A DNA stretch of 64,000 nt. Origin: Verrucomicrobiota bacterium. GTDB lineage: Bacteria; Verrucomicrobiota; Verrucomicrobiia; Opitutales; UBA953. Both the position numbers and the translations under genes were made by a program. Each line of letters opens with the position of its first letter. The first letter of the stretch is position 1. The notes under the pieces are model-generated. The model saw only the letters and a list, made by a program, of their open reading frames with translations, made no database searches and was not told the DNA's origin. The stretch is from NCBI GenBank assembly GCA_041191065.1, contig JBEEPO010000003.1, positions 51,946 through 115,945 on the forward strand, given 5' to 3'. This document shows positions 8,197 through 54,255 of the stretch, piece after piece.

Positions 8197-8742
<546 letters not shown>

Positions 8743-8752
8743 GGGTTTGGTT

Positions 8753-9862: not shown

Positions 9863-9875
9863 GGTCGACGCGGGC

Positions 9876-11636: not shown

Positions 11637-11685
11637 TCGAGGACTGGAGGACTCGCGGGCCCGAGGGCCGGAGGTATCCCTTTTT

Positions 11686-11744
11686 GGTAGGGACAACTCT
11701 CCGAGCCGTGCGTTCGGCGGCGGGTTCGGAGAACCCGCCCTACC
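11686..11744. repeat. GGTAGGG...CCCTACC-bracketed double hairpin downstream of the giant gene
   Basis: GGTAGGG-ACAACTCT-CCGA.GCCGTGCG.TTCGG-C-GGCGGGTTC-GGA-GAACCCGCC-CTACC. The bracket is the same as at 7863-7918, but the internal stems have a different sequence. No U-tract follows on the minus strand. Confidence 0.5.
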
Positions 11745-11798
11745 TCTGTCCCAGGTACGGATGCGATGACATCGCTTCCCGTACCCTTATCCCTCGGC

Positions 11799-14700
11799 TC
11801 AGAAGCGGCGGCGGTAGCCGACTTCGAAGCCCTCGGTCTTCGTCTCGCCGGCTTTTTCGAGCGACAGCGTGAGGTAATACGAACTGTTCCGGTCGGGCTG
11901 GTAGATGAAGGACGGCGCGACGCGGAAGCCCGCGCCTGGGCCGACCCTTCCTTCGGTGAGGAAACGGTCGCCGGAGCCGAAAGCGGCGTCGAATTCGGCG
12001 GTCTGGCTGCCGAGTTCGGTGAAGGCTTCGAGTTCGATCGAGAACCTGAACGAGGAAGCGATGCCGGCCGTGCTCCAGCCGAGGTTGGTTCCGAGGGTGG
12101 CGCGCGTCGAGTCGTAGGAGTAGCCCCGGACTTCGAGGGCGCTGAGGTCGCCCGTCTCGGTGAAGGCGTCTCCGTCGACGTGGACGAAATCAAGCCCGGC
12201 GTAAGGGGAAAGGGTGAAGCCCTGTTTGAGCCCATAGTCGGCGCCGATGCGGGCGAAGCCACCCAAGGACTGGGCCGTGGGTTGGGCGCGTTGCGTGCCG
12301 AGGAAAGTGGTCCGGGCGGTCTCGCTGTCCGTGCGGGCCAAGGTGGCGCCGATATTGAGGTAAGGCGTCCCCGTTTTCTCGCCGAGGAGCGAGGTGGCGA
12401 AGAGCGTCGCATGCATCGTGTTGCCTTCGATGGTGCCGCCGCCGCCCAGGGTGCCGTTCGTCGTATCGTGTCCCAGGGCGAAGCCATAGGAGGCATGGCG
12501 GGAGGTCCGTTTCATCAGGCCGCCCATGACCCCGTCCGCGCGGCTGCTGAAGTCGGCCGCCTCGGCCCCGGTCCCGCCGACGAAGCGGGACGTGTTCACC
12601 AAGACGAATCCTTCGCTATAAGGATGGAAACAATCGCAGCACGCGCAGGAGCCATCCTTGGGCGAGTGGTGTCCGGCGAGTTCGCGGTGGAGGGAGTTGG
12701 CGGCGGAGCGTTGGGCGAGGGCGAGGGTGCCCGGCACGGCCGCGAACGAGGCGGGCTCAAGGCTGTTCATGGCCGACGACAGCATCGGATCGCTCATCGT
12801 CATGAGCTGCGCGACGAGCGGGTCGAGGGCGCCGGGGACGTAGACCGTGCCGCCCAGCTCGAGGGGCTGTCCGGACAGGGTGAGGGCCTTCTCCTGGACG
12901 TAGCCGGTCAGACCCTGGCCGACGCCCGGCTGGACGTAGCCGGCGGCCCCACGCACGAGGTAGACCGCGTACTCGTTCGGGCGATGGACGAGGCCGTCGG
13001 CGTTGCGGACCTGGCCGTCATAAGCCGACGGGGTGGCGCCGGCGTCGATCGCGGCCGGGGCGACGACGAGGTAGCGGGCTTCGGGGTCGAGGTTGACCAC
13101 GGACCATGGGGTCGGGTTGATGAAGTAGGACGAGACCAAGGCCGGGTCCGTGACGGGCGTGCCGACTCCCTTGAAGAGGACGAAGCGGCGGCCATAGTCG
13201 GGCAGCTCGCCCGTCGGTTCGTAGCGGGCGATGGCGATTTCGCCCACGCCCGTCGGGTTGAGGTTGGCCTTGCCCGTGAATTCGACCGTGTCGTTGTAGT
13301 GTCCTCCGACCTGAGGCAGTTTCGAGATCTCGAACGTGCCGCGTCCCGTGAGGTTGATGTCCGCGAGCGTGAGGAAGCCCGGCGCATTGCCGGGGGCGAG
13401 GACGCCGTAGCTGAGCAGCTGCGGCACGGCCGTGAGCCACAGCACGTTGGACTCGAAGGACATCGCCCAGAGGTCGGTTTCGCTCGCGGCTCCGTCGGAG
13501 TCCGTGAATCCCGACAGGTCGTAGGTGAACAGGTCGGCGAACGGGGTGGCGTTCGTGACGAGGCTCCCGACTTCGGCGAACTTGAACCGGTTCACCTTCA
13601 TCGTGTCGAAGTTATTGGCGTCGCCCGGCGTCAGGTCGGTCGGGTTGGCCAGGGAGATGACGCGCACCGTGATCGGGTTGGCCGCCGAAGCGCCGCTGAT
13701 GTCAAGGACGCCGGTGATGGCCAGCGTGTCGTAGGCCGAGCCGGCGACCAGGGCGGAATCCGTCTTGCTGATGCCTGCGGCGAGCGCGTCGGTGACCTGC
13801 CATTCGATGATCGAGCCGCCCGTGAGCGTCAGGCTGGCGTGGGTGAGCGTGCCGGGGGAATTGCCCGGTGCGAGGATCGCGCCGGAGGCGATGGTCGTGG
13901 CCCCGACGACGCCCGCGCCCCGGAGGGAGCCGCCGAGCAGGTTGACGACATTGCCTTGGTCGTGGTTCGCGACGAGCGTGCCGGCGTTGACGGTGACCGT
14001 GCTGGTGCCGAGGGCGCCGTCGTGGGTCAGGTTCAGCGTGCCCGCGTCGACCACCGTGTCGCCGGCGAAGGTGGAGGCGCCGGCGAGCGTGAGGACGCCC
14101 GTGCCGGCCTTGACCAGCGAGCCCGTTCCGGCGATCGAACCCGCCATGGCGCGGTCGGCGGCGTCGCCCGTGGTGAGCGAGCCGCCGGCAAGCAGGACCG
14201 AACCGGCGTTCGTCAGCGCGGCGACGGTCTCGGCTCCGTTCACCTTGAGGGTGGCCCCCGTGGCGACGGTGACGCTGGCGGCCGTCCCCAGGGTCGCGGA
14301 CGCGCCCGTGGCGAGGGTGCCGGCGCTCACGACGATGTCGCCGGTGACGGCGCCGGCGCCGGAGAGGGTGAGCGTGGCGGAGCCTTCCTTGGTGAGGCCG
14401 GAGACGACGACCGCGCCGGCGAGGGTGACGTCGGCCGCCGTGGTGAGGGTGCGGTCCGTGCCGAGGGTGACCGTGCCCGAGAGGGTGAGGGCGCCGGCGT
14501 TGGTCACGTCGCCGAGGGTCACGTCGCCCGCGACGTTGAAGTCGTTGCCGAGGGCGACTCCGTCCGCGCCGGCGGCGGCGAAGGCGCCGGCGTTGAGCGT
14601 CACGGCGGCGGTGCCGAGGGCGCTGGCGTGGCCGACCTGGAGCACGCCGGCGTTGACGGTGGTGCCTCCGGTGAAGGTGTTGGCTCCGTCGACGACGAGC

Positions 14701-35700: not shown

Positions 35701-38700
35701 CCGCCGAGGCGGTAGACCCGTCCGCCGGTCGAACTGTCCGCGGTGAAGCTCCCGGAGTAGGTGTGGTTGCCGGTCGCGCCGAGGGAAAGCAGCGGGTTAC
35801 CGACGAAAGTGATGGTCTCCGCCGAATCGCCGGTGATGGCGAGGCCGCCGGAGGGGTAGGAGCCGTCGGTGACGAGGCGGCCGCTGTTCAGCCAGGCCAT
35901 CACGCCGACGTAGGCGCCGCCCGCCGCGAGCGTGCCGCCGGCGATGCGCACCTTGCCGGCGGTCTCCGGATGGTTGACCGCGTCCAGTCCGGGCAGCGAG
36001 CCCGCGGCGATGTTCAGCTGGCCGAGGCTGACCGTGGTCAGGCCCGTGTAGGAGTTGGCTCCGGTGAGGTTGGCGACCTGGGTCGTCGTCTTGGTGATCT
36101 GGGCGCCGGTGGCGATGACGGCGCTGATCGTGTCCCGCTCGATGAAGATGTTGGCGCCATTGATCCGTCCGCCGCTGCTGGAGTCGATCAGGCCGCCGGA
36201 GACGAGGGTGATGGTGAACCCGTCGTTGGCGTCATAGAAGCCCGCGAGGTCGAGCACGCCGCCTTCGATCCGGATGTTGTTATTGGCCGGCAGGACGTTG
36301 TTCGTGCCCAGCCTCAAGGTGCCCTCGTAGATCGTGGTCGTCCCCGTGTATTCGTTCGCCGCCGACAGGATGAGGGTGCCGGCGCCGTATTTGAAGAGGG
36401 ATCCGTTCCTGACGTTGCTGGCGAAGTTGACCGTCGAATCGACGAAGATCCGGCGGGAACCGCCGAGGTTGACGCCGCCGGTGAAGGTGAGCACGCCGTT
36501 GTCCGTGGGGTTGCCGAGGCGAAGGTAGGCGCCTGAACCCAAGGTCAGCGGATTCGCCAGCGTGAAGTCGGCGGTCCCGGCCGCGCCGTTGCTGGAGAGC
36601 ACCGGGGCGAGGGTCCAGTCGGCGTTGCCGTTGATGGTCAGGCCGGTCGTGCCGAGCGCCGCGTCGTTGCCCACGCGGATCTTGCCGGCGTTGAGCGTGG
36701 TCCCGAGGGAGTAGGTGTTGGCGCCGCTCAGGGTCAGGGTGAGCTTGCCGTTCTTCGTGATCCCGCCGTTGCTGACGACGCCGGAGAAGCCGACGTTGGA
36801 ATCGTTGTCGATGGTGCGGACCGAGCCGTTGAGGTCCGTCCCGCCGGTGAAGATGAGCGCGCCCGAATAGGCCTGCGGGTTGCCGAAACCGTCGTAGATG
36901 TTCCCGAGCTGGACGTCGCCGGCGACGACGACATCGTTGGTGAAAGTGCGATCGGTGGCGCCGTTGCTGGACAGGCGGCCGGAGGTGAGCGTGAGCAGTC
37001 CGGTGCCCAGCGTGCCGTCGGCGCCGGCGAGGATCCAGCCGCCGTTGAGGTTGGTGCCGCCTGAGTAGGTGTTGGTCGTATAGATCCAGACATTCCCGCC
37101 GGTCTTGGTCATCGCCGACGGGCCGCCTGGTCCGTCGGCCAGCACGGCGTTGATCGAGCCGTTGCTGATGGCGTAGCTCGACGCCTTGAGCACGCCCTTG
37201 GAGCCCGCCGGGGCGGAGTCGGTCACGGTGCCGTTGGTCAGCGTGAAGGCGCCGATGGTCTCCGTGCGTCCCTTGAGGTCGAAGCTGCCGCCGGTGATCG
37301 TGACGGTCCCGGCGTCGACGAGGCGCTCGTCTGCGCCGAGCGTGAGGGTGCCGCCGGCGACGGTGGTGCCGCCGGCATAGGTGTTGGCGCCGGAAAGCGT
37401 CAGGTTGTTGTTGCCGCTCTTGTATAACCCGCCGTTGCTGACGACGCCGGTGAGGGTGACGTCCGCCTGCAGGTCGATGGTGCGGGGGGCGGCGCCGCCG
37501 AGGTCGACGTCGCCGGTCAGGGTCAGCGCGCCGTAGTCCGTGTAGTATTCCCCGAAATAAGCGGTGGCCGACAGGACGATGTCATTGGCCAAGGTCCGGG
37601 CCGTGGTCCCGGCGGCGCGCAGGTATCCGCCGGTGATCGTCAGGTCGCCGACGCCGAGGGCGCCGTCGTTCCCGACGCGCAGGATCCCGGCCTGGAGCGC
37701 CGTCCCGCCGGCGTAGGTGTTCGCGGCGTTCAGGGTGGAGGTGCCGCCGGTCTTCTTCGTCACGGCGCCGGAGGCGAGCACGGCGTCGACCGTCCCGGTC
37801 TGGAGCTCGAGGGTCGTGAACGAAAGGGAGCCGTTGCTGATCAGGCCGCCCGTCTGCGTGACGGCGACGAGCGTCTGGGCGTAGCCGCCCAGGTTGAACG
37901 TGCCGGCGGCGAGGGTCAGGTTGCCGGTCGTCAGCAGGCGGTCGTTGCCGGCGAGCACGAGCGAACCCGAAGTATTGATGGTGGTGCCGCCGGAGTAGGT
38001 GTTGGCGCCGCCGAGGGTGAGGGTGCCGTTGCCGTTGAGCACGACGGCCGCCGCCGAGGCCCCGCCGTCCTTGATCACGCCGGTGACGGTGACGGTGTTG
38101 TAGACCGCGAGCGTCCGCGCCGCTTGGTTGAGGTCGAGGTCGCCGGCGAGGGTGAGGGTGCCGCTGGAGCCGTTGCCGAGGGTCGCGTTGCCCAGCAGCC
38201 GGACTTCGTTCCGCAGCGTCTGCGGGGTCGCCGAGCTGGTGCCCAGCCCGACGCCGTTGGACATCGTCACCAGGCCGGTGCCGAGCGGGCCGCTGACGAT
38301 GGCGTTGGCCCCGTCGAGGACGGTGCTGCTGCCGATCCACATCGAACCGGCCAGGATGTTCGTGCCGCCGCCGTAGGTGTTCGCTCCGGACAAGACCACC
38401 GTCCCGTTGGTGCTCTTGTTCACGGGCACCGCCGCGCCGGTCAGGGCGATGCCGATCGAGCCTGATTCGAGGGAGTAACTCGACGCGTTGAGCGTGCCCG
38501 TGCCCGAGATGCTGCCGCCCAGCAGCTTGAGGACGTTGGTCGTCTGCGAATAGGTCGACAGGTCGAAGGTGCCGTTGGCGACGGTGATGCTCCCGGTGGT
38601 GAGCAGGGCGTCGTCACGGCCCAGCTGCAGCGTGCCGCCGTCGATGGTCGTGAGCCCGGTGTAGGTGTTCGCTCCGGAGAGGACGACCAGGCCTCCGCCG

Positions 38701-44700: not shown

Positions 44701-47513
44701 CCGACGCCGGCAAGGTTGGCTGAGATCGTACCGCTGTCGGCGGTGACCTTGTTCAGGGCGACGGTGCCGCCGCTCAGCGTGCCGCCCGCGATCGTGAAGC
44801 TGTTGGCGACCGTCTGGCCGCCGAGGTTGACCGTGCCGCCGGTGTTGACCGTCACCGTGCCGGTACCGAAGGCCGCGGCGTTGCCGGCGGTCAGCGTGCC
44901 GCCATCGACGACCGTGTCGCCGGAGTAGGTGTTGGCGCCGGAGAGCGTGACCGTGCCGGCGCCCGACTTCGTGGCCGCCGCCGCGCCGGCGAGGATGGCC
45001 GAGGCCGTGCCGGCCCGGAGGTCGTAGCTGGCGGCGGTCAGGACACCGGTGGTTCCGGAGATCGTGCCGCCCGCGAGGGTGACGGCGCCGACGGTCTCAG
45101 AAAGGGCGCCAAGCGCGAGCGTGCCGCCGGTGTTGACCGTGACCGCTCCGCCGTCGGCGAGGTGGTCGACCGCGTTGGCGAAGGCCAACGTGCCGCCGTT
45201 GATCGTGGTACCGCCGGTGAAGTCATTGGCGGCGGAAAGCGTGAGCGTGCTGGCCCCGGTCTTAGTGAGCGCCCCCGCCCCGGTCAGGCTGGCGGAGACC
45301 GTGCCACCCGTCGCCGTGAGCTGCGCGACCGCGAAGGTGCCGCCGCTGAGGGTGCCGCCGACATTGATCGTGACGTTGTTGGCGAGCGTCAGCGCATTGA
45401 GGTCGAAGGTGCCGCCGTTGACGGCGATGGCGCTCGTGCCGAAGGCGTCGGCGTTCGTGCCTCTGAGCGTGCCGGCGGTGACCGTCGTCGTCCCGGTGAA
45501 ACCGGTGTTCGTGCCGTTGACCGAGAGCGTGCCGCCCGCGCCGTTCATCGTCAACGAACCGGCGCCGCCGAGGGTGAGGTCGAGGTTCAGCGTGCCCGAG
45601 GTGTTGGTCGCGGTGAGCGAGGTCGGGGAGAAGGTCCCGGCTGTCTGCGTGATCGTCCCGCCCGCGAAGGTGATCGCGCCGCCGGTCTTCGAGAATGCGC
45701 CCAGGGCGAGGGTGCCGCCGTTGACCGTGATCGCGCCGGGCAGGGCGTCGTCGACGCCGAAGGCCAGCGTCCCGGCGGTGAGCGTCGTCGTCCCGGCGAA
45801 GGTCGTGTTGGCCCGGGCGATCGTCAACGTGCCGCCGACGCCGTTGAGGCTCAGCGTGCCTGCTCCGCCGATGAGCGCGTCGAGCGAGACCGCCGAAGTC
45901 GCGGTGACGTTGAGGGCCGTGGCGGAGAGCACGCCGGTCGTGCCCGTGAGGTTGCCGGAGGCGAAGGTGACCGCGCCCGTCGCCTGGTTGAAGGCGCCGA
46001 GGTCGAGCGTGCCGCCGCCGAGTGTGAAGGCGTTGGTGCCCGTCAGCTGGTTGGCCTTGCCGAAGGCGAGCGTGCCGGCGTCGACCGACGTGGCGCCCGC
46101 GTAGGAGAACGTGCTCGCCGCGTCGAGGGTCAGCGTGCCGCCGCCGATCTTGGTCAGGCCACCGGCGCCGGAGAACGTCCCCGTCAGCGTCCCGCCGGCG
46201 GTCCCCGTCGAAAGACGCGCGCCGCTGCCGTTCAGGTTGACCGTGCCGCCGTTCGTCAGGGACTCGATGGTCTCCGACCCGCCGAGGGAGAGCGTGGCGC
46301 CGGCGGCGATCGTGACGCCGGAAGTCGCGGAGAGGCGGTTGTCGCCCGTCGTCGCGAGCGTGCCGGCGCCGACCGTGGTCGCGCCGCTATAGGTATTGGC
46401 GCCGGAGAGCCTCAGGGTGCCCGCGCCGGCCTTGGTGAGCGAGAGGCCGCTGCCCCCGATGACGCCGCCGAGGGCGAGCGTATTGGCCGAGACCGTGATC
46501 GTGCGGTCGGCGCCGAGCGCGATCGCCCCGGTCGTCTGCGTGAGGTTGGCCGTACCGACGAAGGTGAAGTCCGCGGAGAGCGTCAGCGCGTTGTTGATGC
46601 TGAACGCACCGGCGGCGTCCAGGTTGCCGCCGTCGAGGGTGACCGTGGTGCCGCTGCCGAAGGCGTTGTTCGCGCCGGCGGCGAGCGTGCCCGCGGTGAG
46701 GGTCGTGGCGCCGTAGCCGTTGCCCGCCGAGGAAAGGGTGAGCTTGCCCGACCCGAGCTTGATCAGGCCGCCGGTGCCGGTGACGGCTCCGCTCAGCACG
46801 ACGTCGGAAGCGGTCGTGAGCGACAGGGAGGAGGCTCCCGTGGCGACCGTGCCGCTGATCGTCAGGATGCCGGTATTCGTCGCGTCACCGAGCGTCGCGG
46901 CGGAGCCCAACGTGAAGTTGTTCGACAGCGATCGTGCCGTGGAGCCGTTGGCCGAGAGCGTCGTGCCGGAGGCCATCGACACCGCGCCCGCGCCGAGGGC
47001 ATTGTTGGCGCCGATCCGGATCGCGCCGGCGGCGAGGGTGGTCGTGCCCGTGAGGACGTTGCTCGCGTTCGTGAGCACCAGCGTGCCGTCACCGTTCTTG
47101 GTGATGGAAGCGCCCGACAGGATCGAATTGACCGTCGCGGTGAACCCCGAGCCGACGGTCAGCGATGGCGAGGTCCCCGATAAGGTCAGCGTCCCGCTGT
47201 TGAGCACCACGTCGTTGTTGAACGTGACCGAGTTGGCGTAGGCGCCGGAGACCGTGACCGTCGCCGCCGAGCCGAAGGTCGCGGCGTTGCCGCCGCCGTT
47301 CGTGGAGTTCCACGGGTTCGTGCCGGAGGGAGTCCAGTTGGTCGTCGTCGTGCCCCAGGTCGCGTTCGGCGCGCCGGTCCATTCGAAGTTGGCGCCCTCC
47401 GCCGTGCCGGCGGCGAGCAACATCGCCATCATCGCCCCGGCCGCCAAGCCGGGTTTCCCCTGCGGCCGACGCCGGAAAGCCCAGAAGGGCGCTCTGTGGG
47501 AGGAATGCGGCAC
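11799..47513 (-). CDS. Giant classical (type Va) autotransporter, 11,904 aa: signal peptide, about 11,000 aa of autotransporter-associated beta-strand (PATR-like) repeats, C-terminal beta-barrel translocator
   Basis: One uninterrupted ORF. It starts with GTG at 47513 (in-frame ATGs at 47432 and 47429). The N-terminus ...FRRRPQGKPGLAAGAMMAMLLAAGTAEG/ANFEW looks like a signal peptide. The passenger shows a repeated core of the type G(A/T)LTLSGANT(Y/F)xGxTTVxAGTL about every 100 aa. Near the C-terminus there are two APGN(S/A)PG motifs. The last ~250 aa are an amphipathic beta-strand region ending in GFEVGYRRRF with a terminal aromatic residue, as in autotransporter beta-domains. Confidence 0.9.
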   Translation of the reverse strand: MPHSSHRAPFWAFRRRPQGKPGLAAGAMMAMLLAAGTAEGANFEWTGAPNATWGTTTTNWTPSGTNPWNSTNGGGNAATFGSAATVTVSGAYANSVTFNNDVVLNSGTLTLSGTSPSLTVGSGFTATVNSILSGASITKNGDGTLVLTNASNVLTGTTTLAAGAIRIGANNALGAGAVSMASGTTLSANGSTARSLSNNFTLGSAATLGDATNTGILTISGTVATGASSLSLTTASDVVLSGAVTGTGGLIKLGSGKLTLSSAGNGYGATTLTAGTLAAGANNAFGSGTTVTLDGGNLDAAGAFSINNALTLSADFTFVGTANLTQTTGAIALGADRTITVSANTLALGGVIGGSGLSLTKAGAGTLRLSGANTYSGATTVGAGTLATTGDNRLSATSGVTIAAGATLSLGGSETIESLTNGGTVNLNGSGARLSTGTAGGTLTGTFSGAGGLTKIGGGTLTLDAASTFSYAGATSVDAGTLAFGKANQLTGTNAFTLGGGTLDLGAFNQATGAVTFASGNLTGTTGVLSATALNVTATSAVSLDALIGGAGTLSLNGVGGTLTIARANTTFAGTTTLTAGTLAFGVDDALPGAITVNGGTLALGAFSKTGGAITFAGGTITQTAGTFSPTSLTATNTSGTLNLDLTLGGAGSLTMNGAGGTLSVNGTNTGFTGTTTVTAGTLRGTNADAFGTSAIAVNGGTFDLNALTLANNVTINVGGTLSGGTFAVAQLTATGGTVSASLTGAGALTKTGASTLTLSAANDFTGGTTINGGTLAFANAVDHLADGGAVTVNTGGTLALGALSETVGAVTLAGGTISGTTGVLTAASYDLRAGTASAILAGAAAATKSGAGTVTLSGANTYSGDTVVDGGTLTAGNAAAFGTGTVTVNTGGTVNLGGQTVANSFTIAGGTLSGGTVALNKVTADSGTISANLAGVGSALAKSGSGTLTLSGANTFSGGTAVTAGTLVIGATNTLLTSGALTVDGGTLSLGNFNQLAGAITYASGSITGGTGVLSGASFTANATTAVSLDAILGGATTLTMNGADGTLTLTRANTFTGGTTVTAGTLALGLANALPGAVTVNGGTLSLASFNKTSGAVTFTAGNITGTTGILSATSLASATTGTLSLDALIGGSGTLTMSGSGTLAVTRANSTFSGATSVSAGTLRAGDDAAFGTAVITVSGTGTLDLNGKTLTNAITLTAGTLAGGTISASQLTLTSGTISAILGSGALTKSTAGSVTLTGANTFAGGTTLSAGTLVVGATDALPGAIAISGSGALSLGAFNNAAGAVTFSAGTITSTTGELRATSLTANNAAAATIAGLLGGAGTLTKNGAGVLTLNGTNTYTGDTTINAGTLLAGADAAFGTSTVRLTAGILDLNGKTIGNSVIMTGGTLTGGTLSASLLTPTAGTVSAILGGAGALTKSTAGLVTLSGANTYSGGTTLSAGTIRAGSTSSLVGAYAVSGGTLDLATFNNTLGAVTFSAGSITGTTGVLSATSLTATHTGGTLTLAALVGGSTSVTMNGAGGTLSLTRLNTYTGGTTVTAGTLALGLDSSLPTARAVTVDGGTLALSTYNNTVGAVTISAGSITGTTGKLTAASVTGTGTATISAILDGAGTLTMNGAGTLTVSGANLYAGGTTVMAGTLVAGSATAFGTSTITLSGGTLDLNNLTIANTLVFAGGAITGGTIDASKATFETGTIGAKITGTVALTKATTGILTLTNAANDYTGGTTVSNGTLALGATDAAPGVLTLSGGTFDLTTFDATPTSVAISGGTIAGSTGVLSTSAISATPAGTATISAIIGGATAVTLNGAGALVLSGDNTYSGGTTVTTGTLRVGHDRALGSAGLTLNGGGLSNAGSTAITIANDLSLTADVALGSATFAGALDLTGTVDFTGTTRTLTVTSGVSLSGVVSNGGLTKAGTGTLTLNAANTYAGDTTVSAGSLFQGRANALGAVANLLTVGSAGTVDLKGFALTVSGLANISGAGGVVTNTGSAATLTLDGSVNKTFAGAITGAIALRKVGTFTQILTGANSFTGGTTLTEGKLELGAVNALGGNLVVDGGTLDLTTNNNASGAVAYASGSITGASGVLTASSLTVTNAGDLSLDAILGGTSALVKNGAATLTLNSISTFTGGTTLNTGTLALGGANRLRTTGAMTQNAGVFDLGGFDQQLGTFTLVDGTVQDGNLSVTTLGLQNGTIDAVLANGGGLVSTALTKSTTGTVTLASANTYAGTTTLTAGVLRAGDDAAFGTSALTLSGGKLSSVGATARSFANNVTLGGDVTLGDAVDTGAITFGGNFATSASARTVTLLTDLTVNGVTSGTGGWTKAGAGTLTLNGANTFSGGFNIAAGDVLVGSATGLGAASNLIAVGAGTSVDLQGNAATIGGLADISAAGGTFTNTGVAATLTLGGAVSSSFTGLISGAISLNKTGSASQTLGHANTFTGTTTLSAGTLVVGDDAAFSTGNVYLQGATLDLNGKTIGNMVYFTGGSLIGGTLLASQLVVEAGTISAVLSGPGRFNKTGTGTLTISGANNFTGGTVVDDGILAMGAHNVLPGSITLNGGVENGRYGGVLAMGAYNNANSTAIVFNGGDVTSTLGFTGVLTGTSFTSTNTVLDASEIRAVLAGTGASLTLSGAGTTALYGVNTYSGGTFINDGILLLKDRNRLNAAGIVTVDGGIFDLGGFAQQVGAVTLQTGTIRNGNLSGASYDFRSGTVSAVVADGSGGATAVNKTTAGTVTMTEINSYTGGTNVTAGTLALVQANALFRTGVINVSGGTFDLGGVAQKTGLVTLTGGAIANGTLNASGYTLMNGAISAVIGNVTSPAAATAINKVTDGSGGGGTVVLSNVNTYTGGTFVTGGTLELRANGALPLGRTLVVNGGTLDLTTTAQSVSTLQITSGSITSSTGTITVTSGGTPTFDLQGGTVSAILAGTGVAATKTGGGLVVLSGANTYTGLTTIDGGTLQLGRDDALLTTGSITVANGTFDLSTYSQTTNVLKLLGGSISGTGTLNASSYSLESGSIGIALTGAAVPVNKSTNGTVVLSGANTYGGGTNILAGSMWIGSSTVLDGANAIVSGPLGTGLVTMSNGVGLGTSSATPQTLRNEVRLLGNATLGNGSSGTLTLAGDLDLNQAARTLAVYNTVTVTGVIKDGGASAAAVVLNGNGTLTLGGANTYSGGTTINTSGSLVLAGNDRLLTTGNLTLAAGTFNLGGYAQTLVAVTQTGGLISNGSLSFTTLELQTGTVDAVLASGAVTKKTGGTSTLNAANTYAGGTALQAGILRVGNDGALGVGDLTITGGYLRAAGTTARTLANDIVLSATAYFGEYYTDYGALTLTGDVDLGGAAPRTIDLQADVTLTGVVSNGGLYKSGNNNLTLSGANTYAGGTTVAGGTLTLGADERLVDAGTVTITGGSFDLKGRTETIGAFTLTNGTVTDSAPAGSKGVLKASSYAISNGSINAVLADGPGGPSAMTKTGGNVWIYTTNTYSGGTNLNGGWILAGADGTLGTGLLTLTSGRLSSNGATDRTFTNDVVVAGDVQLGNIYDGFGNPQAYSGALIFTGGTDLNGSVRTIDNDSNVGFSGVVSNGGITKNGKLTLTLSGANTYSLGTTLNAGKIRVGNDAALGTTGLTINGNADWTLAPVLSSNGAAGTADFTLANPLTLGSGAYLRLGNPTDNGVLTFTGGVNLGGSRRIFVDSTVNFASNVRNGSLFKYGAGTLILSAANEYTGTTTIYEGTLRLGTNNVLPANNNIRIEGGVLDLAGFYDANDGFTITLVSGGLIDSSSGGRINGANIFIERDTISAVIATGAQITKTTTQVANLTGANSYTGLTTVSLGQLNIAAGSLPGLDAVNHPETAGKVRIAGGTLAAGGAYVGVMAWLNSGRLVTDGSYPSGGLAITGDSAETITFVGNPLLSLGATGNHTYSGSFTADSSTGGRVYRLGGGAGRLTFASVIADAGDGANPTKVVVRGDTDGSAVTLGAYNAFTGGLDLVSYYLDVSASDQFANFTGAGDNAIRFLGGTLRHRSVITDPSGKFAAVGAGQFIRIDTNGLSPTYATTLTGAGGLSKVGTGTLTATAGYQGATNVYAGVTDLRMDPLLATPAGNFTVFNSGTTLRLNASNDRTITSQTIQSSANYWNPAGNLAFYSTDGATLTMSGQITRSGYYGLLSVTGGRVVFDGTVANADTIDWTVSGGTLELRNASANLNGFVNSVAAGATVRLLASDQVKYDVGAMGGTFDLNGFGESVRHFTTVDGSVVTNAAGTASVLTMTGTGSFAGRLSDSLAGDGKLSLVISNTSATTLTKSTSDYRGGTTLDGGSLYFAGDNVLGSGGLVATAGVISSNQGATLRTYAGAYGVAGNVTYGDSAYYSWNAVSTLDFSGATTLRAADRTFTANTGVRFSGAGIGEDTAGLGFTKAGEGKMTLAGTNTYTGGTVVAYGTLATEGDNRLSSTAIIDVQNLSTYDPWNPHRNDSYLFTTLQIGGAETLNSFVTAGKTKANSGTIDLNGASAVLTTGTTGGDTTLIGRITGAGRIVKEGAGALTLTGATTHVYWYHDGIWGWRTATGDFQSTFTGGITLNGGTLQLAGNSGFGGATSIVTLNAGRLSSDSTGGRSFNNPLVFNADVPLGSLTKTGAMHNAGTVDLGGVNRTLLTDSDFSFSGVVSNGGLNKTGAATLTLTGANTYVGPTTLNAGWIRIGNNSGVGTSTAFSTSAVTLNAGRLSSNNGNNNAYTLANAITLGGDVALGHAAYYGPLTLSGTLNLGGAAHTMTVDSAITLTGVISNGGFTKAGAGTLTISSSAANTYAGATTITAGMVATGGSAGRLGSTSGVALSAGAVLQLNTSETINLLTGAGSVVLNGTAVRLTTGTNNGDYVLGSVVSGTGTFTKTGTGSVTLAGTNTYTGDTTLTNGTIRLGSDDALGNAVSSYLLVTAGRLSSDGATDRSLGNNITMNGDLALGSVTNTGRVTLAGGISLEGFNRTFTVDSVATISGILANGAITKAGASTLTLTAANTYTGGTTISAGTLLLGSAERLDDRGTLAALGGTFDLGGFTETVAVVTVDGGTVANGTLIGSNYANTSNVYALKSGAVSAVLGEMNSGVQKQSVNKTTAGTVILSGVNTYTGTTTVTAGVLATATNDGVLRSTASVTVAAAGTLRLGTTERLDALVSTGVIDFATGRLDLGLANTNTTLGGTITGTGGTLNKDGTGSLTVTGANSFAGDTILTAGVLRAGSNTAFGVSVLNLNAGRFTSDGATARTLGNALVLGGGVVLGDTSTFTGALTFSNTFSLGGGVRGITTDSTVNFTGVVSNGGFIKTGAGDVTLTGDNTYSLGTTLSQGTLRAGSDTAFGTGTVTLNAGRVSANSAVARSLANDLVLGADMLLGSTTDTGALTFSGDVDLGAATRTLTIDSAVTIGGIISNGGLTKLGAATLTLTGANSYEGATLVSTGVLATVGDGVLRNNGSGYTIAAGATLSVGGLETLDTLTNNGTLLLNGGTVTTGTGDADTTLTGAVTGTGFLIKEGAGSLLMTGGKSYSGGTTLNAGTLRVSSNNSLGTGPLTLNGGAFTSGGAGNRSLANALVFGGDIVFGASADYTGTLTFSGTTDLGDTVRTLTTNVDTTISGDIDPSSMIRPSGGLIKLGAANLTLSGNNAFKGATTVSVGGLITVGNSRLTNSSSVTIASGATLTVGGNETLNRIFNSGTIVNNGVITSGLATATTIDSVVSGTGAFIKEGAGTLTLNASTTYAAGTTINAGTLLLGAADRLLDAGLLTIDTGGTFDLGGFSETVGAVTLTNGAITNGTLTGASYAVRAGTVSGILAGAGIAVTKTTSGTVTFSGGNTYTGATAVSAGTLATTGDERIADVSAVSVSLGATLQLGGVETIQTVTNAGTITLPNAGSNLVAGSGANYTLGGTISGNGTFTKVGVGTITLSATGVYSYLGGTTVDAGALVFAASNHLANAAPVTVNGGELRLSTFSDTVGAVKLTGGTITGTTGVLTATAYDLQAGVITANLAGAGAIATKSTAGIVTLTGNNSFTGKFILNEGTIYAGSDTAFGAGQICINDPTIASDSTAARTFANEVLINGELFLGDLVNTGALTFNGSVDLGAAAWTITTYSPATFNGILSNGGFVKDGASSLTLGAINTYLGGTTLNAGTLVAGSATFAFGGAGGTAGLLTINGGSLDASVAATITNAISLGATLDFVGTANLTQNTGAITLTGSRAINVAANTLTLNGLVSGAGFGVTKSGAGKLILGGANTFGGGLTLSAGTLVLANNAALGTGTFTVDGGVVDASPAVTITNAIALGADLTFAGTANLTQGTGAIALGADRVITVNGSTLTLGGVIGGSGAGFTKAGAGTLRVTAANTYSGATNLDAGTLVLASSFFALGGSGSTAGLFTVNGGVLDAASGGATITNAVTLAADLNFTGSGNLTQNTGAITLTGSRSVSVGSTAAVTLGGDVSGDTFSLTKTGTGGLHLLGVVGTGTGGVSVSAGTLRLAGVNTYTGDTTLTAGTLIAGSATYAFGGSGGAAGTLFVNGGTLDATVAATITNAVNLGGNLLYAGTASLTQNTGAITLGAANRTLQISGSTVTLGGVIGGDAGVGIAKQGVGTLILAGANTYTGGTTLTQGPLVLASATHALGGSGGTAGTFTINGGSVDASVNATIANAITLGADFTFTGSANLTQTTGAITLGANRTITVGGSRLSLGGVVGGATFGITKAGAGTLELAGINTYTGNTTLSAGTLVAGSATFAFGGSGSTAGTLGLTGGILDASVNATITNAITFGANLVFTGTANLTQNSGAINLGGASRTITVNGSTLTLNGAVSGTGLGITKAGTGALVLGGIVGTGTGGSVTVNAGSLRLSGVNTYTGGTTLAAGATLYAGNNSAFGTGALTLNGGTLSSASATAYTLANNTTIAGNLALGDGVNVGNLTLNGTVGLGASVRSLTVSSGVNVTMNGVISGANGGITKLGAGTLTLGGASANAFTGATTVSEGTLATTTAGRFTTTSGVSVAAGATLTLGANETLNALTTVNTASLVTGSTVNLNGPGVVLSLGSGVTSLKGVVTGTGNLTKNSAGTLTLDAAGLFDYAGTTTISNGTLAYAADDQLVGPVVVNGGAFAIGSFSDTVASVQLTAGSITGTGGVLTSSATYDVRAGSVSAILAGATGAVGLTKTGAGTVILSGTNTYAGTTTVTAGILQLGANNVIADGSDLTVNGGTFNLGGFADTVGNVSLTSGTISNGTLTGSAYAFQAGTVSAKLSGSGNLTKTTGGTVSLSGANDFTGTTTVSEGTLSTTGNAVLTSSASVTVASGAFLTLGGNETLNTISNSGTITTNGALTTGTADADGTIGGALAGTGSLVKSGTGILTVTGANSYSGGTTLNAGVLRAGGATAFGTGTIDLAGGTFSSDGTTARTLANALTISGNIALGGATDDGALTFSGTVGLGAAVRTLTVDSAVTFNGIIGGALGGFDKQGLGTLTLGGANTYTGATTVSAGTLVTTASNRLANTSGVSVADGATLRLGGSETINALTTTASSTIVLDGAAVTLTTGVNTLSLSGAVNGAGNLTKAGAGTVTLDAAGTFSYAGLTTVSAGILAYAADDQLVGAVTVSGGTFGVGAFTDTIGKLTLSGGAITGTGALTVNSTDTIDLRAGSAAVDLDGTAAAIKTTAGIVTLTGNNGFSGGFTLTTGTVLIGSDTALGANGVALNGGTLASDATIAAGGARTIANDLSFGGDVTLGDAANTGVLTFTGTADLGAATRTLTTASDVVMSGVISNGALTKAGTGTLTLSVLNTYAGLTTVTAGTLVTSGAGILANTSGISISSGATIRLQGNETLNSIANSGTLTLDGAGVVLTLGTNDVAMTLAGLTNGAGSIVKDGTSSLTIGSAATNAYAGGFTLKSGNLYAASNSAFGTGTLTITGGVLSSDGATARTFGNALSITGDIVLGDAVRNGALTFLGDLDLGGSNRTAQIDSAVTFSGVVSNGQLLKTGAGVLTFTNGNTYSGGTTIDAGTVRFGASNTLDDTGFVTVATGGTLDIATFSDSVGLVQLSGGAITGTSGVLTGSAYDLQSGSASAILGGTGIAAVKSTAGTVTLSGANTFSGGLDLNGGVLQVGNNSALGTGTLILASGKLSSSSTTAYTLANAVTLGGDVTLGDAVNTGALTFTTGIDLGGIGRTFTTDSAVTFSGVVSNGGLIKEGSATLTLSGANTFADATTVNAGTLATSGDARLATTSGVTTLAGATLRLGGAETINTLNNAGEVDLAAAGSVLTTGASDYALGGTVSGLGSLIKSGAGLLTLDAAGTFSYTGGTTVNAGKLLLGANSRLADTGAVTVNGGAFDLGGFADTVGTVTLTGGTIENGTLTVNAADTFALQAGTVSADLAGTASLDKTTAGTVTISGANTYSGTTTVSAGTLVTDAGALGGTSGIAVNDATLTAVDANATATLALDGTGFATFSATDLFLGAVTNANTAVGALEFTGVTGTVTIGSLGGGGHTSFASDAATTGGISGGTVVVTGLLTSAISGGTVSAATLSSASVTGGATTIAGDATVTSFNLGTLTVGGATTITTLTAGTANLNGATASVTNLDGGTVALGATVLTVSAGTSAGVISGADGSLVKTGAGTLTLSGANTYGGTTTVSAGTLVTGAGSLAGTSGIVVDGGVLTAFDYNAAATLDVGAMGSAVISGTGLTLSGAVTNANLTSGSLDFTGTTDTITLASLAGTGSTRFGSAATISAGVSVGTVEVVGLLTADISGGTVAAGSLASASVTGGTTSVTGAAGVTSLNGGTLTVGGVATIGTLTSGAANLNGTTSSVATLDGGTVALGTTALTVSAGTFGGSISGVDGSLIKDSGGVLTLTGANTFGAGTTLAAGTLLAGDDAALGTGTITLDGGKLASIGSVARAFANDLTLGGAVTLGDATNDGALAFGGAVALGGAVRAVTTVADVTFAGVVAGTNGGLTKDGAGTLTLSAANTFTGGFTLDAGTVFAGTDTSFGTGTVTLNAGVISAVGSAARIFGNAVVLGGDLTFGATGNLGALSFGALSVGSSDRTLTTDADTSFTGEFTGSGDLTKEGAGSLTLAGASTFAGGVTINDGSLVTVGNHRLSASSGVTVAAGAALSLGGDETIDVLLNSGTVTIGGILTTGASDYTLGGVLDGTGSLNKAGAGTLTLALAADHIGGTTVSAGTLRLAAAERLADTGALTVAGGTFDLGGHTETVGAFVLESGTVTDGNLVASSYELQSGSFLADLAGAGVSARKTTAGVVILSGNNTFGGGLILDAGTIRAGSDTAFGTGTLCVNDPTLTSVGSAARTFANDVDINGDITFGDALNLGTLTFNGQIDLGAGSFVIETVADVTFANTVADGNLVKTGAGTLTLSGANTYAGTTSVNAGTLATVGDGRLASTSGLTVASGATLALGGDETLNTLHNAGTVTLALASTTLTTGATDYTLGGAVSGLGNLLKEGAGTLTLSATGVFTYKGSTIINGGTILYAGADLLDDESTVTINAGGTLDLNGFDDTVGTITLAGGSIINGTLTSANYELQSGTASTVIDGAANVLKTTAGTVTMAGANTYTGYTSINAGVLRVGDAAAFGPSGQLRLLGGSLTGIGSAALTFGNTVRFGGDFAFGSVADDAALTFTGATDLGGATRTVTTVADVAFTNTVANGSLVKDGAGALTLSGTNGFSGGLTLNAGALRAGSDTAFGDGTLTLNGGTLSSDGSAARSLANDLVANTDVTLGDATLDGALTFGGSLDLGGGERTLTTVSDVTLAGMVFNGGLTKAGDGKLTLSGPNTYAGATSVTAGTLATVGNSTLTATASVNVSAGATLALGGDEALEGIANAGTITLGGILTTGTSSYTLGGALGGAGSLVKAGGGTLTLTSLTTHAGGTTVDAGTLLLSGAGDHLADAGALTVNGGAFDLGTLAEAVGVVTLTGGAIANGTLTATSFAFEAGTVSAVLAGGGATKTTAGTLTLSGANTFGGGFTLGAGAVLAGDDGAFGSGLLALNGGVLSSAGADARAFANAVTLGGDATLGDATNNGALAFAGLIDLGATTRTLTVASAVAFDGVVSGTAGLTKAGAGTLTLTAANTFSGVTTVDAGSLVASAGSLGGTSSIAVNGAGLLDAVDYNPAATLGIAGAATVTISGAGLSLGDVQNAGSLSFTGATGVITLASLGGGGSAAFSSDATISAHGLSQGVVSAAGLLTSDISGGTISAGSLAATTISGGATAVSGIATIGTLSAGTVSLGGATASIGTLDGGDVALGATALTVAGGTFAGTLSGANGSLIKAGAGTLTLSGANTFGGGATLDDGLLLAGADGALGTGTVTFAGGTLAAVGSSARTFTNGISLAADATFGETTANNGALTFGGASELGSVARTVTTNADTTLAGVVSGSADLTKAGAATLSLSGANTFTGSITVGAGTLTAAGGSLGSTSAILVDGNAALSAVDYHSSATLGVAAGANATISGTDLSLAAVTNAGTVAFTGTTGTITLATLGGAGTTTFASHASLTGGISGGTVDVTGDLTSDISAGTVTVDGNVTAGTISGGTLAFNGATAAVSRLTGGDIALAGTTLSVSEGSTAGIISGTGGLDKTGAGSLTLLGANTFSGTTTVSGGTLTAAAGALGGTSAVSVGAAATLVAVDLNGSATLTVAATGAGDFSGAGLSLGTVANDGTLNFGATSGLITLGSLSGAGTTHFAADAFIVGGISGGVVNVAGNLKSTISGGIVTTFSLDTTSVTGGVVTVTGANTAAGGTNTVSGGTVRLGDDAAVATGGLVVAGAATFTSDGAGSRNVASDVILGGDVTLGDATFGGELNFTGAVDLGAASRTVTTVADATFAGDITGTGGLTKSGAGTLTLSGANNTFTGTTTVGAGTLATVGDNVLASTAGVSIASGATVRLGGDETLSSIDSSGTLQIDATLTAAIATGTSTLGGLVSGAGVLIKDGAGTLVVDGANTFTGGTTVNAGVLQVGHASALGTAAVTLNAGAFAAAGADGVALGNDFNVAGDVTLGDVTNAGALTLSGTVTLGTDRTLTTAADVTLAGAVVVSGLTKEGSATLTLSGAGAVTGDIVVSAGTLATGASATLGTAASVTVATGATLKVNGAETVAALTNAGSVLLAGGSLTTGDAADRAMAGSIAGTGSLVKAGTGVLTLAGASTFAGDTVVDAGTLNLTHDGALGTSTVTVNAGTLVANHDQGNVVNLLGGSLRGAGVVGATTIASGAILAPGNSPGTLTHASLTLTGGSIIEWQVTDALAAGISKTDSALVAGSAYDTLAITGVLDISGASAANPITVRVISLANPTDLTPGDANNFDTMKVNRFKFAEVGSLVTNATPFADLFTYDLSGFTDSDGAASETDLWAMSFESNVLWLTAVPQLLSYGVLAPGNAPGFLTLADINLTGRGTFEISKLPQVGGHYNDTVEFTGKANLNPTGVGEIAIARYEPTGELPDYGRRFVLFKGVGTPVTDPALVSSYFINPTPWSVVNLDPEARYLVVAPAAIDAGATPSAYDGQVRNADGLVHRPNEYAVYLVRGAAGYVQPGVGQGLTGYVQEKALTLSGQPLELGGTVYVPGALDPLVAQLMTMSDPMLSSAMNSLEPASFAAVPGTLALAQRSAANSLHRELAGHHSPKDGSCACCDCFHPYSEGFVLVNTSRFVGGTGAEAADFSSRADGVMGGLMKRTSRHASYGFALGHDTTNGTLGGGGTIEGNTMHATLFATSLLGEKTGTPYLNIGATLARTDSETARTTFLGTQRAQPTAQSLGGFARIGADYGLKQGFTLSPYAGLDFVHVDGDAFTETGDLSALEVRGYSYDSTRATLGTNLGWSTAGIASSFRFSIELEAFTELGSQTAEFDAAFGSGDRFLTEGRVGPGAGFRVAPSFIYQPDRNSSYYLTLSLEKAGETKTEGFEVGYRRRF
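11802..12560 (-). other. Autotransporter beta-barrel translocator domain of the giant protein
   Basis: About 250 aa from ...DGVMGGLMKRTSRHASYGFALGH to ...LSLEKAGETKTEGFEVGYRRRF, with an alternating hydrophobic pattern and a terminal F. A CACCDC cluster and a non-repeat junction region (12,560-13,880) precede it. Confidence 0.75.
27000..29110 (-). repeat. Six tandem, diverged copies of a ~342-nt (114-aa) super-repeat inside the giant gene
   Basis: The landmark GATCGCGTTGGTGATCGTGGC and its variants recur at 27198, 27540, 27888, 28293, 28638 and 28962, spaced 342, 348, 405, 345 and 324 nt apart. The protein unit is ...SATFAFGG.G..G.....GG.LDASV.ATITNAI.LGA.L.F.GTANLTQ.TGAI.L...R.I.V....L.L.G.V.G..FG.TK.G.G.L.L.G.NT..GG.TL.AGTLV. 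By-eye DNA identity between copies is roughly 70-85%. Confidence 0.75.
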
Positions 47514-47952
47514 TGCTCTTCAGACACCTAGCAGGTTTCGCTCCCGTCTGCCTAGCCTGATTGTTCAGATTTCTATATTTTTAATATCTGCTGCCGCATG
47601 GAATCGCGGTCCGGTCAGGCTTGGGCACCAAGGCGAATCATCATAAGTTTGGTCCTCTTCTTGGTGATGAGAGCGGGCGGCGGCGGCGGGGCCGAGCGCG
47701 CCGATTCTGCTGATCCGGAGACCAGGAGTATGCCAAGTCGATGGCTCCCCCTTGCGCCGCCACCGGAGGAGATGAAAGCATCGTTTAATGAACTTATTCA
47801 GTCATATAATGGAAGCAGGCTTGGTTTTTCGCTTTAGGGAGCTCATCGATGGCCTTTCTATTCATTAAACAATTAAATCTGACCAATCTGACAGTCAAAA
47901 AAATGGTGGCTTTTGGTAAATCAGCCGAGATGATTTATGCTTATAAATCGAC
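47514..47952. promoter_or_regulatory. AT-rich divergent control region between the giant autotransporter gene and the AraR-like regulator gene
   Basis: This 439-nt spacer has the lowest GC content I could see in the window (for example TTCAGATTTCTATATTTTTAATATCTG, CATTAAACAATTAAATCTGACCAATCTGACAGTCAAAAAAATGG, TTTATGCTTATAAATCGAC). It contains CAGAT-N15-ATCTG (47566-47590) and the direct repeat AATCTGAC-C-AATCTGAC (47875-47891). Promoters were not mapped. Confidence 0.5.
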
Positions 47953-49035
47953 ATGCCAGCCGCTAAATTCGAGAAAAAAGCCGTATTTGAGTTCCTTGCG
48001 GACAGTATCGAAGCTCAGATTCGGCAGGAGGGTTGGAAGGGGTTGCTGCCATCGGGAAGAGCCTTGGCCCAACAGCACAAGGTCAGTCTGCCTACGGTCC
48101 AAAAGGCCGTCGCCCTATTGATCGCACGCCAGATCTTGGTCAATCGAGGAGGGAAGCGCCGGCTTGAGATCGCCCCCGCATTGATCGGAGCGCCGCCTGC
48201 CTCCGGACCGTTGAACATCCTGGTGATTTCCACCCTGCCCTTGATCACGTATGACGCCTCCATCTCCATGGGTATCCTTAGGCTCGGCGAGAACCTGAAA
48301 GCCAAGGGCGACGGCTTCAGGTTCGTCGACCTGAGCCACGTGCAGGGTTCGGAGCGCCGCAAGGCCGCGCACGCCGAGGTGGTGAAATCGCGCCCGACGC
48401 ACGTCATCCTGATGACGCCGGATGCGTCGCTTTTCGCCGGCGTCGCGCGCCATCCGGTGAAGCTCGCCTCGATGTTCGGCACCTTGCGTTCCAGACGCGT
48501 CACCCGATTAGGGGTCAGGTACGGCTACCTGGTCGATATCGCGCTGAAACATCTGATACCATTGGGCCATCGACACTTCCTGATGCCGTTCTTCGCCCGC
48601 AAGTCGAAGATGCGCGAGTCGATGGCCGCCATCGCCCGGCTGGCTGAGGAGCAGGGCGTGCGGATCGAGGTGAAGCTCTCTTCGCAGCCGCTGACGACCG
48701 CGAACATGGGCGGCTTCCTCGGCGCCGGTCTGGCCCGCGGAGCCACCGCGGTGATCTTCCCGCAGTGGACCGACTTCATGCCGGCCATCGGCTATTTCGC
48801 CACCCGTGGACTGGAGTTTCCGCGGGATCTCTCGGTCGTGGCCCTCGTCGGCAACTCCACCACCCGCGCGTATGTGCCGCCGGTGGCCTGTTGTCTGAGC
48901 TCACCCGACAGCATCGCCCAGCAGGCCGAGATCTGGGCCCGATTCCAGAAGGTCGAAGATGAAGCTTACATCACGGTCTACCAAAAGACCTGGGAGGCCG
49001 GCGCTTCCACCGGACCGGCGCCGATCAGAAGTTAG
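47953..49035 (+). CDS. Transcriptional regulator with an N-terminal GntR-type winged HTH and a C-terminal LacI/PBP1-type sugar-binding domain (AraR-like architecture)
   Basis: 360 aa. The N-terminus ...LPSGRALAQQHKVSLPTVQKAVALLIARQILVNRGGKRRLEI is a GntR-type HTH. The remaining ~280 aa show the alternating beta/alpha pattern of periplasmic-binding-protein-like I effector domains. The 5' part of the gene is visibly less GC-rich than its neighbours. Confidence 0.65.
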   Translation: MPAAKFEKKAVFEFLADSIEAQIRQEGWKGLLPSGRALAQQHKVSLPTVQKAVALLIARQILVNRGGKRRLEIAPALIGAPPASGPLNILVISTLPLITYDASISMGILRLGENLKAKGDGFRFVDLSHVQGSERRKAAHAEVVKSRPTHVILMTPDASLFAGVARHPVKLASMFGTLRSRRVTRLGVRYGYLVDIALKHLIPLGHRHFLMPFFARKSKMRESMAAIARLAEEQGVRIEVKLSSQPLTTANMGGFLGAGLARGATAVIFPQWTDFMPAIGYFATRGLEFPRDLSVVALVGNSTTRAYVPPVACCLSSPDSIAQQAEIWARFQKVEDEAYITVYQKTWEAGASTGPAPIRS

Positions 49036-52433: not shown

Positions 52434-52452
52434 GTCGCTTAAGATCGGGAGA

Positions 52453-54248: not shown

Positions 54249-54255
54249 GTTAAGG

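Follow-up and report, generated by a model that had tools for sequence, protein, structure and literature searches.

Does a stop-free reading frame of 35.7 kb in a bacterial contig encode one real protein, and what kind of protein would it be? The frame lies on the minus strand of a 64,000-nucleotide stretch of DNA from a Verrucomicrobiota bacterium (assembly GCA_041191065.1, contig JBEEPO010000003.1, positions 51,946 to 115,945); "the window" below means this whole stretch, and nucleotide positions are counted from its first letter. We conclude, with a probability of roughly 80%, that the giant gene is genuine and selectively maintained and that it codes for a PATR-subtype classical (type Va) autotransporter, its host being a freshwater member of the Opitutae (Verrucomicrobiota).

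11799..47513, minus strand: the whole open reading frame (ORF), stop-free, with a GC content at third codon positions (GC3) of 0.94 and a ratio of nonsynonymous to synonymous substitution rates (dN/dS) of 0.18 against the orthologous contig L020 over 5,492 codons.

The initial annotation of this DNA had described a single stop-free frame of 11,904 amino acids with a GTG start, and the ORF listing and translation agree with this exactly, giving 11,904 codons followed by a terminal stop that is the only one in the frame. The predicted product has a computed mass of 1,137 kDa, in line with the ~1 MDa first estimated, and an isoelectric point of 4.45. GC contents at the three codon positions (0.58/0.60/0.94) follow the same pattern as in the other real genes of the window, whereas long ORFs in rival frames, such as the 2,767-aa ORF at 11766-20069 on the plus strand, have a mirror-image, non-coding pattern. 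At ~70% GC about 1.9% of random codons are stops, and by our own arithmetic the probability of 11,904 stop-free codons arising by chance is near e^-230. The protein is rich in glycine (17.9%), threonine (16.9%), alanine (13.7%) and leucine (11.1%); its content of charged residues (D+E+K+R, 8.4%) is indeed low, but the description of the passenger as having almost none was overstated.

A gene built of repeats might be a product of assembly, and as the decisive test we searched metagenome contigs with an interior stretch that is free of repeats. The search yielded three independent contigs, of 37.2, 36.0 and 30.8 kb. In two of them, L020 and L021, one frame is open over the entire 21.4 kb fetched (7,144 codons, open at both ends) and is colinear with aa 475-7690 of the giant protein at 76% identity, and the third, L019, has the same colinear frame with one frameshift. 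Over aa 471-5970 the match to L020 is virtually gapless, unit for unit, at 80-93% identity, and the 5,492 aligned passenger codons give a dN/dS of 0.18 at a dS of 0.45. The 37.2-kb contig, Ga0114982_1000133, has a further 2.5 kb and 13.3 kb of sequence outside the fetched locus and thus, by contig arithmetic, just enough room for a complete orthologue of ~35.7 kb, and it may contain the whole gene. Both ends of the gene are reproduced elsewhere as well, the N-terminal end by contig L018 and the C-terminal end by colinear matches in L004 (78% identity over 1,474 aligned aa), L009 (65%, 1,397 aa), L008 (59%, 1,866 aa) and L006 (47%, 3,874 aa), in each of which no stop interrupts the frame before the contig or the fetched locus ends. 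Homologous loci come from freshwater Opitutae/Opitutales metagenome-assembled genomes (MAGs). Within the gene the longest exact repeat is 32 nt, and the repeat copies are mostly 60-85% identical at the DNA level. The mis-assembly that the initial annotation had named as a hazard is thus not what we find, since independent contigs carry the gene colinearly, and its passenger, junction and barrel are all under purifying selection (dN/dS 0.18, 0.17 and 0.15, respectively).

The bulk of the protein is passenger, which has three recognizable parts.

13953..47105, minus strand: the PATR array (aa 137-11187), with ~104 units mostly of 92-120 aa, each with about five predicted rungs of 19 residues.

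34653..36098, minus strand: a PATR-poor, non-repetitive insert (aa 3806-4287), a gap of 481 aa between consecutive PATR matches.

25854..29603, minus strand: a species-variable part of the passenger (aa ~5971-7220), recognized by windowed identity to L020.

That the passenger consists of PATR repeats, as first proposed, is upheld by the Pfam scan, in which PF12951 (PATR) matches all twelve chunks of ~1,000 aa in 89 significant stretches and no other passenger family matches any chunk, and by TIGR02601, which matches with an E-value of 5e-42. With a hidden Markov model built from the motifs of the protein itself, 104 PATR sites are recovered, and the distances between them peak at 90-100 and 110-120 aa. 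The units have the form LTKxGxGTLTLSGANTYxGGTTVxAGTL followed by ~70 residues of further beta-strand. Amino acid identity between units averages 40% with a maximum of 69%, and neighbours are no closer to each other than distant units; the array is old and diverged. Tandem Repeats Finder reports only one array in the gene (342 nt, 2.7 copies, 73%). Matches to the ShdA, EprS and fusolisin NCBIfam equivalog models involve only the shared repeat and barrel parts, with scores of 65, 64 and 20 bits against cut-offs of 2,249, 1,700 and 999 bits, respectively. Because 65 bits is so far below the ShdA equivalog cut-off, the giant protein is no ShdA orthologue.

Hydrophobic residues recur in the passenger every 19 positions and glycine every 6-7, periodicities that fit a triangular beta-helix with ~19-20 residues per rung and about five rungs per unit. 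An AlphaFold2 (AF2) model of three units, made with an alignment of the 22 other three-unit windows of the same protein (23 non-overlapping windows in total), is all-beta, with a predicted local distance difference test score (pLDDT) of 96.6 and a predicted template-modelling score of 0.92. When the unit profile is compared with the PDB sequence set it finds the PATR-bearing passengers of IcsA (5ke1, E 8.6e-14), Ssp (8e7f) and fusolisin (8axg).

Two parts of the passenger depart from this regularity. The insert at aa 3806-4287 has more charged residues, proline and tryptophan, matches no other Pfam family, and is kept at 83% identity in three independent contigs with a dN/dS of 0.185. The stretch at aa ~5971-7220 is only 32-63% identical to L020 and is rearranged, with deletions of 20-136 aa and an insertion of 314 aa, while the thousands of residues that flank it are 82-93% identical and virtually gap-free; this stretch may be a hypervariable or specificity region. 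Both parts are candidate specificity regions of the protein.

The passenger is followed by a C-terminal module of 540 aa, common to homologues from Verrucomicrobiota (Opitutae) MAGs, which with the segment just before it comprises the following.

13422..13871, minus strand: the first APGNSPG-initiated module (aa 11215-11364), after the last PATR unit; it aligns with the homologous proteins P0001 and P0002.

12756..13421, minus strand: the conserved junction (aa 11365-11586), which begins with the second motif, APGNAPG; a candidate autochaperone or passenger cap.

12675..12755, minus strand: a predicted alpha-helical linker (aa 11587-11613), AF2 helix H223-249 of the 540-aa module, directly before the barrel.

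12630..12647, minus strand: a CxCCxC cluster (aa 11623-11628), situated after the linker helix and before the first barrel strand.

11802..12617, minus strand: the autotransporter beta-barrel (aa 11633-11904), recognized by PF03797, AF2 and Foldseek; it ends in GYRRRF.

PF03797 matches aa ~11647-11877 with an E-value of 1.5e-26 and 94 bits against a cut-off of 26 bits, and the AF2 barrel has pLDDT values of 80-94. The top Foldseek matches of the barrel are all type Va (EstA 3kvn and AaaA 9oqa at E 3.5e-15, EspP, NalP, Hbp and AIDA-I), those to solved type Va barrels span E 1e-15 to 1e-8, and the TM-score against BrkA is 0.85, so the barrel domain first proposed is confirmed by both sequence and fold comparison. 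In the comparison with the close orthologue L004, no part of the protein is better conserved than the barrel (dN/dS 0.15). In the orthologues L008 and L009 (59-65% identity) the barrel has a dN/dS of 0.7-0.8 next to 0.17-0.19 for the adjacent junction, which suggests replacement or recombination of the barrel, or else a saturated estimate. The last six codons (11802-11819) encode the GYRRRF noted at the outset, which is invariant in all 11 aligned homologues and has arginine at -3 (third from the C-terminus). The canonical outer-membrane beta-signal has a hydrophobic residue at that position, and GYRRRF may be a lineage-specific variant of the recognition motif for the beta-barrel assembly machinery (BAM).

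Between the array and the barrel the protein is less familiar. The two APGN(S/A)PG motifs are present as described, at aa 11215 and 11373, and aa 11155-11640, which cover the APGNSPG module and the junction, match nothing in Pfam even at an E-value of 10. The junction nonetheless has many invariant columns across 11 homologues (for example VLFKG..TP, RYLVV.PAA and PNEYAVY.VR) and a dN/dS of 0.17. AF2 assigns it a pLDDT of 24-43 over residues 1-160 of the module and higher values towards the C-terminal end of the junction. An autochaperone or pertactin-like domain is common in beta-helical autotransporters but is not universal; judging by its position and its conservation, this strongly constrained domain occupies the place expected of an autochaperone and could serve that role. 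The Foldseek alignments of the module model extend to full-length EstA and to pre-cleavage EspP. The CxCCxC cluster, which holds four of the six cysteines of the giant protein, is probably at the periplasmic mouth of the barrel because the predicted lumen helix precedes it and barrel strand 1 follows. It is confined to the closest homologues: P0001-P0003 have it in full, P0004 and P0007 have two of the cysteines, and the rest have none.

At the other end of the gene we consider the start codon, the signal peptide and the region upstream.

47394..47513, minus strand: a putative Sec signal peptide (aa 1-40), with a basic n-region, h-region LAAGAMMAMLLAAG and an AEG cleavage site, as read by eye.

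47553..47572, minus strand: a conserved element, AAATCTGAAYAATCAGRCTA / AAATCTGAACAATCAGGCTA, with the inverted repeat CTGA..TCAG, 40-59 nt upstream of the GTG.

The N-terminus on which the initial annotation based its signal peptide, RRRPQGKPGLAAGAMMAMLLAAGTAEG/A, is present in the translation; an n/h/c layout can be read there by eye, with an h-region of 14 residues and a putative cleavage at AEG/A, and L018, an orthologous contig with 82% identity, retains this layout with its basic n-region. The likely start codon is the GTG at 47513, which would give a signal peptide of ~40 aa, because L018 keeps the GTG and the peptide PFWAFRR.PQGK 5′ of the internal ATGs, because the two sequences differ near the start by a 12-nt indel that is in frame, and because similarity falls off upstream of the GTG. 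The ESPR Pfam model has no match in the giant protein. The element at 47553-47572 is the only upstream block common to the window and L018, and is a possible promoter element or a possible operator at which the adjacent regulator (47953-49035, plus strand) acts. No sigma-70 promoter consensus was found beside the gene, although such a scan is uninformative for Verrucomicrobiota; scans on both sides of the gene found no intrinsic terminators, and neither Rfam nor tRNA scans gave a hit anywhere in the window.

How far does this protein lie outside what is known? A HMMER pass over 1.84 billion representative proteins with the first 1,200 aa as the query found 20,834 relatives, the best 150 of which reach 7,441 aa. 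Among those relatives a Pfam scan of the C-terminal 320 aa of the ten largest barrel-candidates tested (5,161-7,080 aa) found PF03797 in all ten. These large PATR autotransporters (P0063, P0039, P0080 and others), which come from public genomes and metagenomes, resemble the giant protein in having a PATR passenger (35-43% identity) and a PF03797 barrel. The largest barrel-confirmed relative has 7,080 aa, and the 7,441-aa protein, the longest of the best 150, has no barrel-type C-terminus; the giant protein is ~1.6-1.7 times longer than these. By contrast, a sister or paralogous clade with the same junction and barrel module (42-46% identity) has proteins of only ~2,400-2,700 aa.

Predicted proteins of comparable length have been described. 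BigE of a Betaproteobacterium, a predicted classical autotransporter of 10,429 aa, was the largest known at the time (Celik et al. 2012; PMC3419190). It too has the type Va layout, exceeds 10,000 aa, has a passenger enlarged by replication of internal beta-strand repeats and is known from sequence only. It differs, in a comparison made by description only, in belonging to another phylum and in having a BrkA-like passenger with an eight-fold replication of a common passenger domain, whereas the giant protein has ~104 diverged PATR units, is 14% longer and has an Opitutae-specific junction and barrel module. Proteins of at least 10,000 aa are frequently detected in the Planctomycetes-Verrucomicrobia-Chlamydiae (PVC) phyla, Verrucomicrobiota included, and BV-BRC contains 7,478 proteins of 10,624 aa or more (West-Roberts et al. 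2023; bioRxiv 10.1101/2023.11.21.568195). Omnitrophota giants have up to 38 PATR copies (2026 preprint).

Smaller relatives are better characterized. IcsA/VirG, ShdA, MisL and BmaA/B/C share the PATR motif, the beta-helical passenger and the PF03797 barrel. Brucella BmaA and BmaB carry 5-6 PATRs, BmaB has 1,593 aa and BmaC is ~340 kDa (PMC8111173); in this respect the Bma proteins differ from the giant protein, which has ~89-104 PATRs. Fap2 of Fusobacterium nucleatum, with 3,744 mature residues, ~3,430 aa of them extracellular, and a 47-nm helix of 2,905 residues (PMC12397386), is the largest structurally characterized type Va adhesin that we found. In Fap2, too, a C-terminal barrel anchors a beta-helical passenger shaped like a rod, with ~200 aa of linker between helix and barrel, and Fap2 is itself an adhesin. 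The giant passenger is ~3.3 times that of Fap2, and its rungs are of ~19 residues compared with the ~30 implied for Fap2 if the rise per rung is a typical 0.48 nm. A different solution is found in adhesins of type I secretion, such as MpIBP (~1.5 MDa, ~120 repeats of 104 aa) and the LapA-type RTX proteins, which are made of immunoglobulin-like beads with near-identical repeats. The giant protein would resemble them in its way of working, as a megadalton surface fibre of an aquatic bacterium with ~100 repeats of ~100 aa that carries a binding region far out from the cell, and they differ in that the giant protein is of type Va and has a predicted continuous beta-solenoid of strongly diverged repeats.

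The statement that the passenger would be several times larger than any studied therefore holds for passengers studied by experiment, such as that of Fap2, but not for predicted ones, in view of BigE. Similarly, the architecture assigned to the protein stands but its novelty was overstated, given BigE, the relatives of 5,161-7,080 aa and the PVC giants, and nothing supports the suggestion of a new kind of surface sheath. The giant protein is an extreme member on a continuum of known architecture and not a new system; it is possibly the longest type Va protein yet described, as a prediction.

We propose the following course for its secretion. Sec would export the giant protein to the periplasm and BAM would insert the barrel into the outer membrane; the passenger would then thread out as a hairpin from C to N and fold outside the cell, rung by rung, from the conserved junction. 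One PATR motif per ~100 aa would be a regularly spaced aid to folding and secretion, a role that, according to the account in PMC8111173, was proposed for PATR by Doyle et al. (2015). The product would be an acidic, Gly/Thr/Ala-rich beta-helical fibre of ~180-270 nm anchored in the outer membrane. If the fibre is straight and continuous, ~11,050 aa at 19.5 residues and 0.48 nm per rung give ~270 nm, and the Fap2 ratio gives ~180 nm, so that a reach of hundreds of nanometres, as first suggested, is plausible. By analogy with known adhesins, the most probable function of the fibre is attachment to particles, algae or other cells. Export at such a size appears feasible because all ten of the tested 5,161-7,080-aa relatives share the architecture and because a 3,230-residue fragment of the Fap2 passenger is exported through a heterologous AIDA-I barrel (PMC12397386). 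A more specific proposal, that ~11,300 residues are exported whole through one barrel and form a continuous fibre of ~200-270 nm on a planktonic freshwater Opitutae cell, seeded by an undescribed junction with the CxCCxC cluster on its periplasmic side, would make this the longest type Va passenger; we put it forward tentatively and hold it to be rather doubtful.

Alternatively, the passenger might be cleaved off or cut up after export and function as a coat or matrix protein, either released or loosely attached. Many type Va passengers undergo cleavage once they are secreted, some being released by proteolysis (PMC3419190), and two tandem APGNxPG modules and a junction that matches nothing in Pfam lie at the usual place of cleavage. 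However, none of the chunks was found to contain a protease domain or known cleavage motif, and the near-gapless colinear conservation of aa 471-5970 fits selection on one long structure, so we think release unlikely and prefer an anchored adhesin. Somewhat less likely still is that the passenger is mainly a surface scaffold for binding or degrading polysaccharides, tied to a glycan-degrading lifestyle. Two sulfatases and an alginate lyase are encoded nearby, and weak Foldseek matches include beta-helical fucoidan and alginate lyases; these matches are not significant (E above 1, TM 0.2-0.3), no lyase or hydrolase family matches anywhere in the protein, and the glycan genes are on the other strand with nuo genes between them and the autotransporter.

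That the gene is a silent or decaying relic whose frame is still open by happenstance is very improbable. The frameshifts in the orthologous contigs L018 and L019 and the failure to find a promoter consensus would fit such a relic, but the sigma-70 scan says little in this phylum, a 35.7-kb frame with a GC3 of 0.94 would not remain open by chance, and dN/dS is 0.15-0.2 along passenger, junction and barrel at a dS of ~0.45. An assembly artefact, a single frame made by the joining or collapse of several paralogous PATR genes or of repeat copies, is the least credible account, since for all the gene's repetitiveness at the motif level and the fragmentary state of most public homologues on short contigs, its diverged copies offer no template for collapse, three independent 31-37-kb contigs are colinear with it over more than 7,100 codons (two open, the third with one frameshift), the stretch compared with L020 is nearly gapless, and both gene ends recur elsewhere.

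Several points weigh against a genuine autotransporter that acts as an anchored adhesive fibre. The orthologous contigs L018 and L019 each have a frameshift, which is either assembly error or real decay there. The expression, localization and processing of the giant protein are predictions from sequence alone, its putative signal peptide is a reading by eye, and the adhesin role is assigned by analogy. The alignment behind the AF2 passenger model came from internal repeats, and this may have inflated its confidence. Pertactin and autochaperone Pfam models, a check that the initial annotation had proposed, find no match at E 0.01 in the last 1,000 aa, in keeping with the null result for the junction region above, and the predicted junction, with its low pLDDT, lacks a confident fold. 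The modelled barrel has 13-15 DSSP segments, with bulges, and its strand number is therefore approximate; the type Va barrel has 12 strands. Finally, Foldseek finds no significant match in the PDB for the passenger model, the best being IcsA 5ke1 (E 0.74, TM 0.25). The main reasons, in our view, are that structure searches cope badly with solenoid rods and that the rung size is different, and we would not take the result as proof of a new fold.

Some observations on the homologues should be recorded. Single frameshifts split the ORF in L018 (nt ~1131-1213), L019 (nt ~4445-4646) and L016 (nt ~9803-9821); they are either assembly or sequencing errors or real pseudogenization in those lineages. 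L016, to all appearance a 592-aa "passenger-less" homologue, is actually a frameshifted gene of ~2,660 aa, and the database homologues of 885-1,004 aa are probably N-terminally truncated gene calls. Word-indexed protein searches with C-terminal, N-terminal and interior queries returned fragments only and no giant orthologue in that database. Two autotransporter contigs, L004 (CALPIW020000119.1) and L010 (JBAWZV010000031.1), are in MAGs labelled Polynucleobacter meluiroseus and Actinomycetes, respectively, and L004 also has nuoG; these labels probably reflect bin contamination.

The autotransporter gene sits on the minus strand inside a split nuo cluster, in the order nuoB-C-D-E-F, a Ppnp-family gene, a PUA-SAM (S-adenosylmethionine) methyltransferase gene, a divergent GntR/Peripla_BP_3 regulator gene, the autotransporter gene and nuoG-H-I, which begins 264 nt downstream of it. 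The two parts of the cluster, nuoB-C-D-E-F (51084-55400) and nuoG-H-I (8197-11534), are both on the minus strand and ~39.5 kb apart, and neither nuoA nor nuoJ-N adjoins them. The adjacency of the autotransporter gene and nuoG is kept in L004, L005, L007 and L008, and L008 retains the whole downstream synteny. Horizontal insertion was considered as a cause of the higher GC content of the gene and dropped, since the excess fits codons rich in Gly/Ala/Thr and the position next to nuoG is kept in relatives. Beside nuoB, at 55504-60295 on the plus strand, an alginate lyase gene (PF05426) stands between two sulfatase genes, neighbours that fit a lifestyle of degrading sulfated polysaccharides.

The giant gene extends the predicted size range of classical autotransporters to 1.14 MDa, and unlike most giant ORFs it is accompanied by independent assemblies, purifying selection and unit-for-unit conservation over the ~5,500 colinear residues compared. 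It reveals no new secretion principle, since similar autotransporters of 5,000-10,000 aa are already on record; the junction domain and the cysteine cluster are the parts most likely to hold something new. The gene does offer a credible natural case in which to test if a single 12-strand barrel is able to export a passenger ~3 times the length of any that has been studied by experiment, and how a beta-helix with roughly 560 rungs folds vectorially. If export in one piece is true, type Va secretion would have no practical length limit and the junction would be a new class of autochaperone or plug. For the organisms themselves, the gene shows that abundant freshwater Opitutae spend ~36 kb of a small genome on one predicted surface fibre, which bears on how they attach to particles and algae in lakes.

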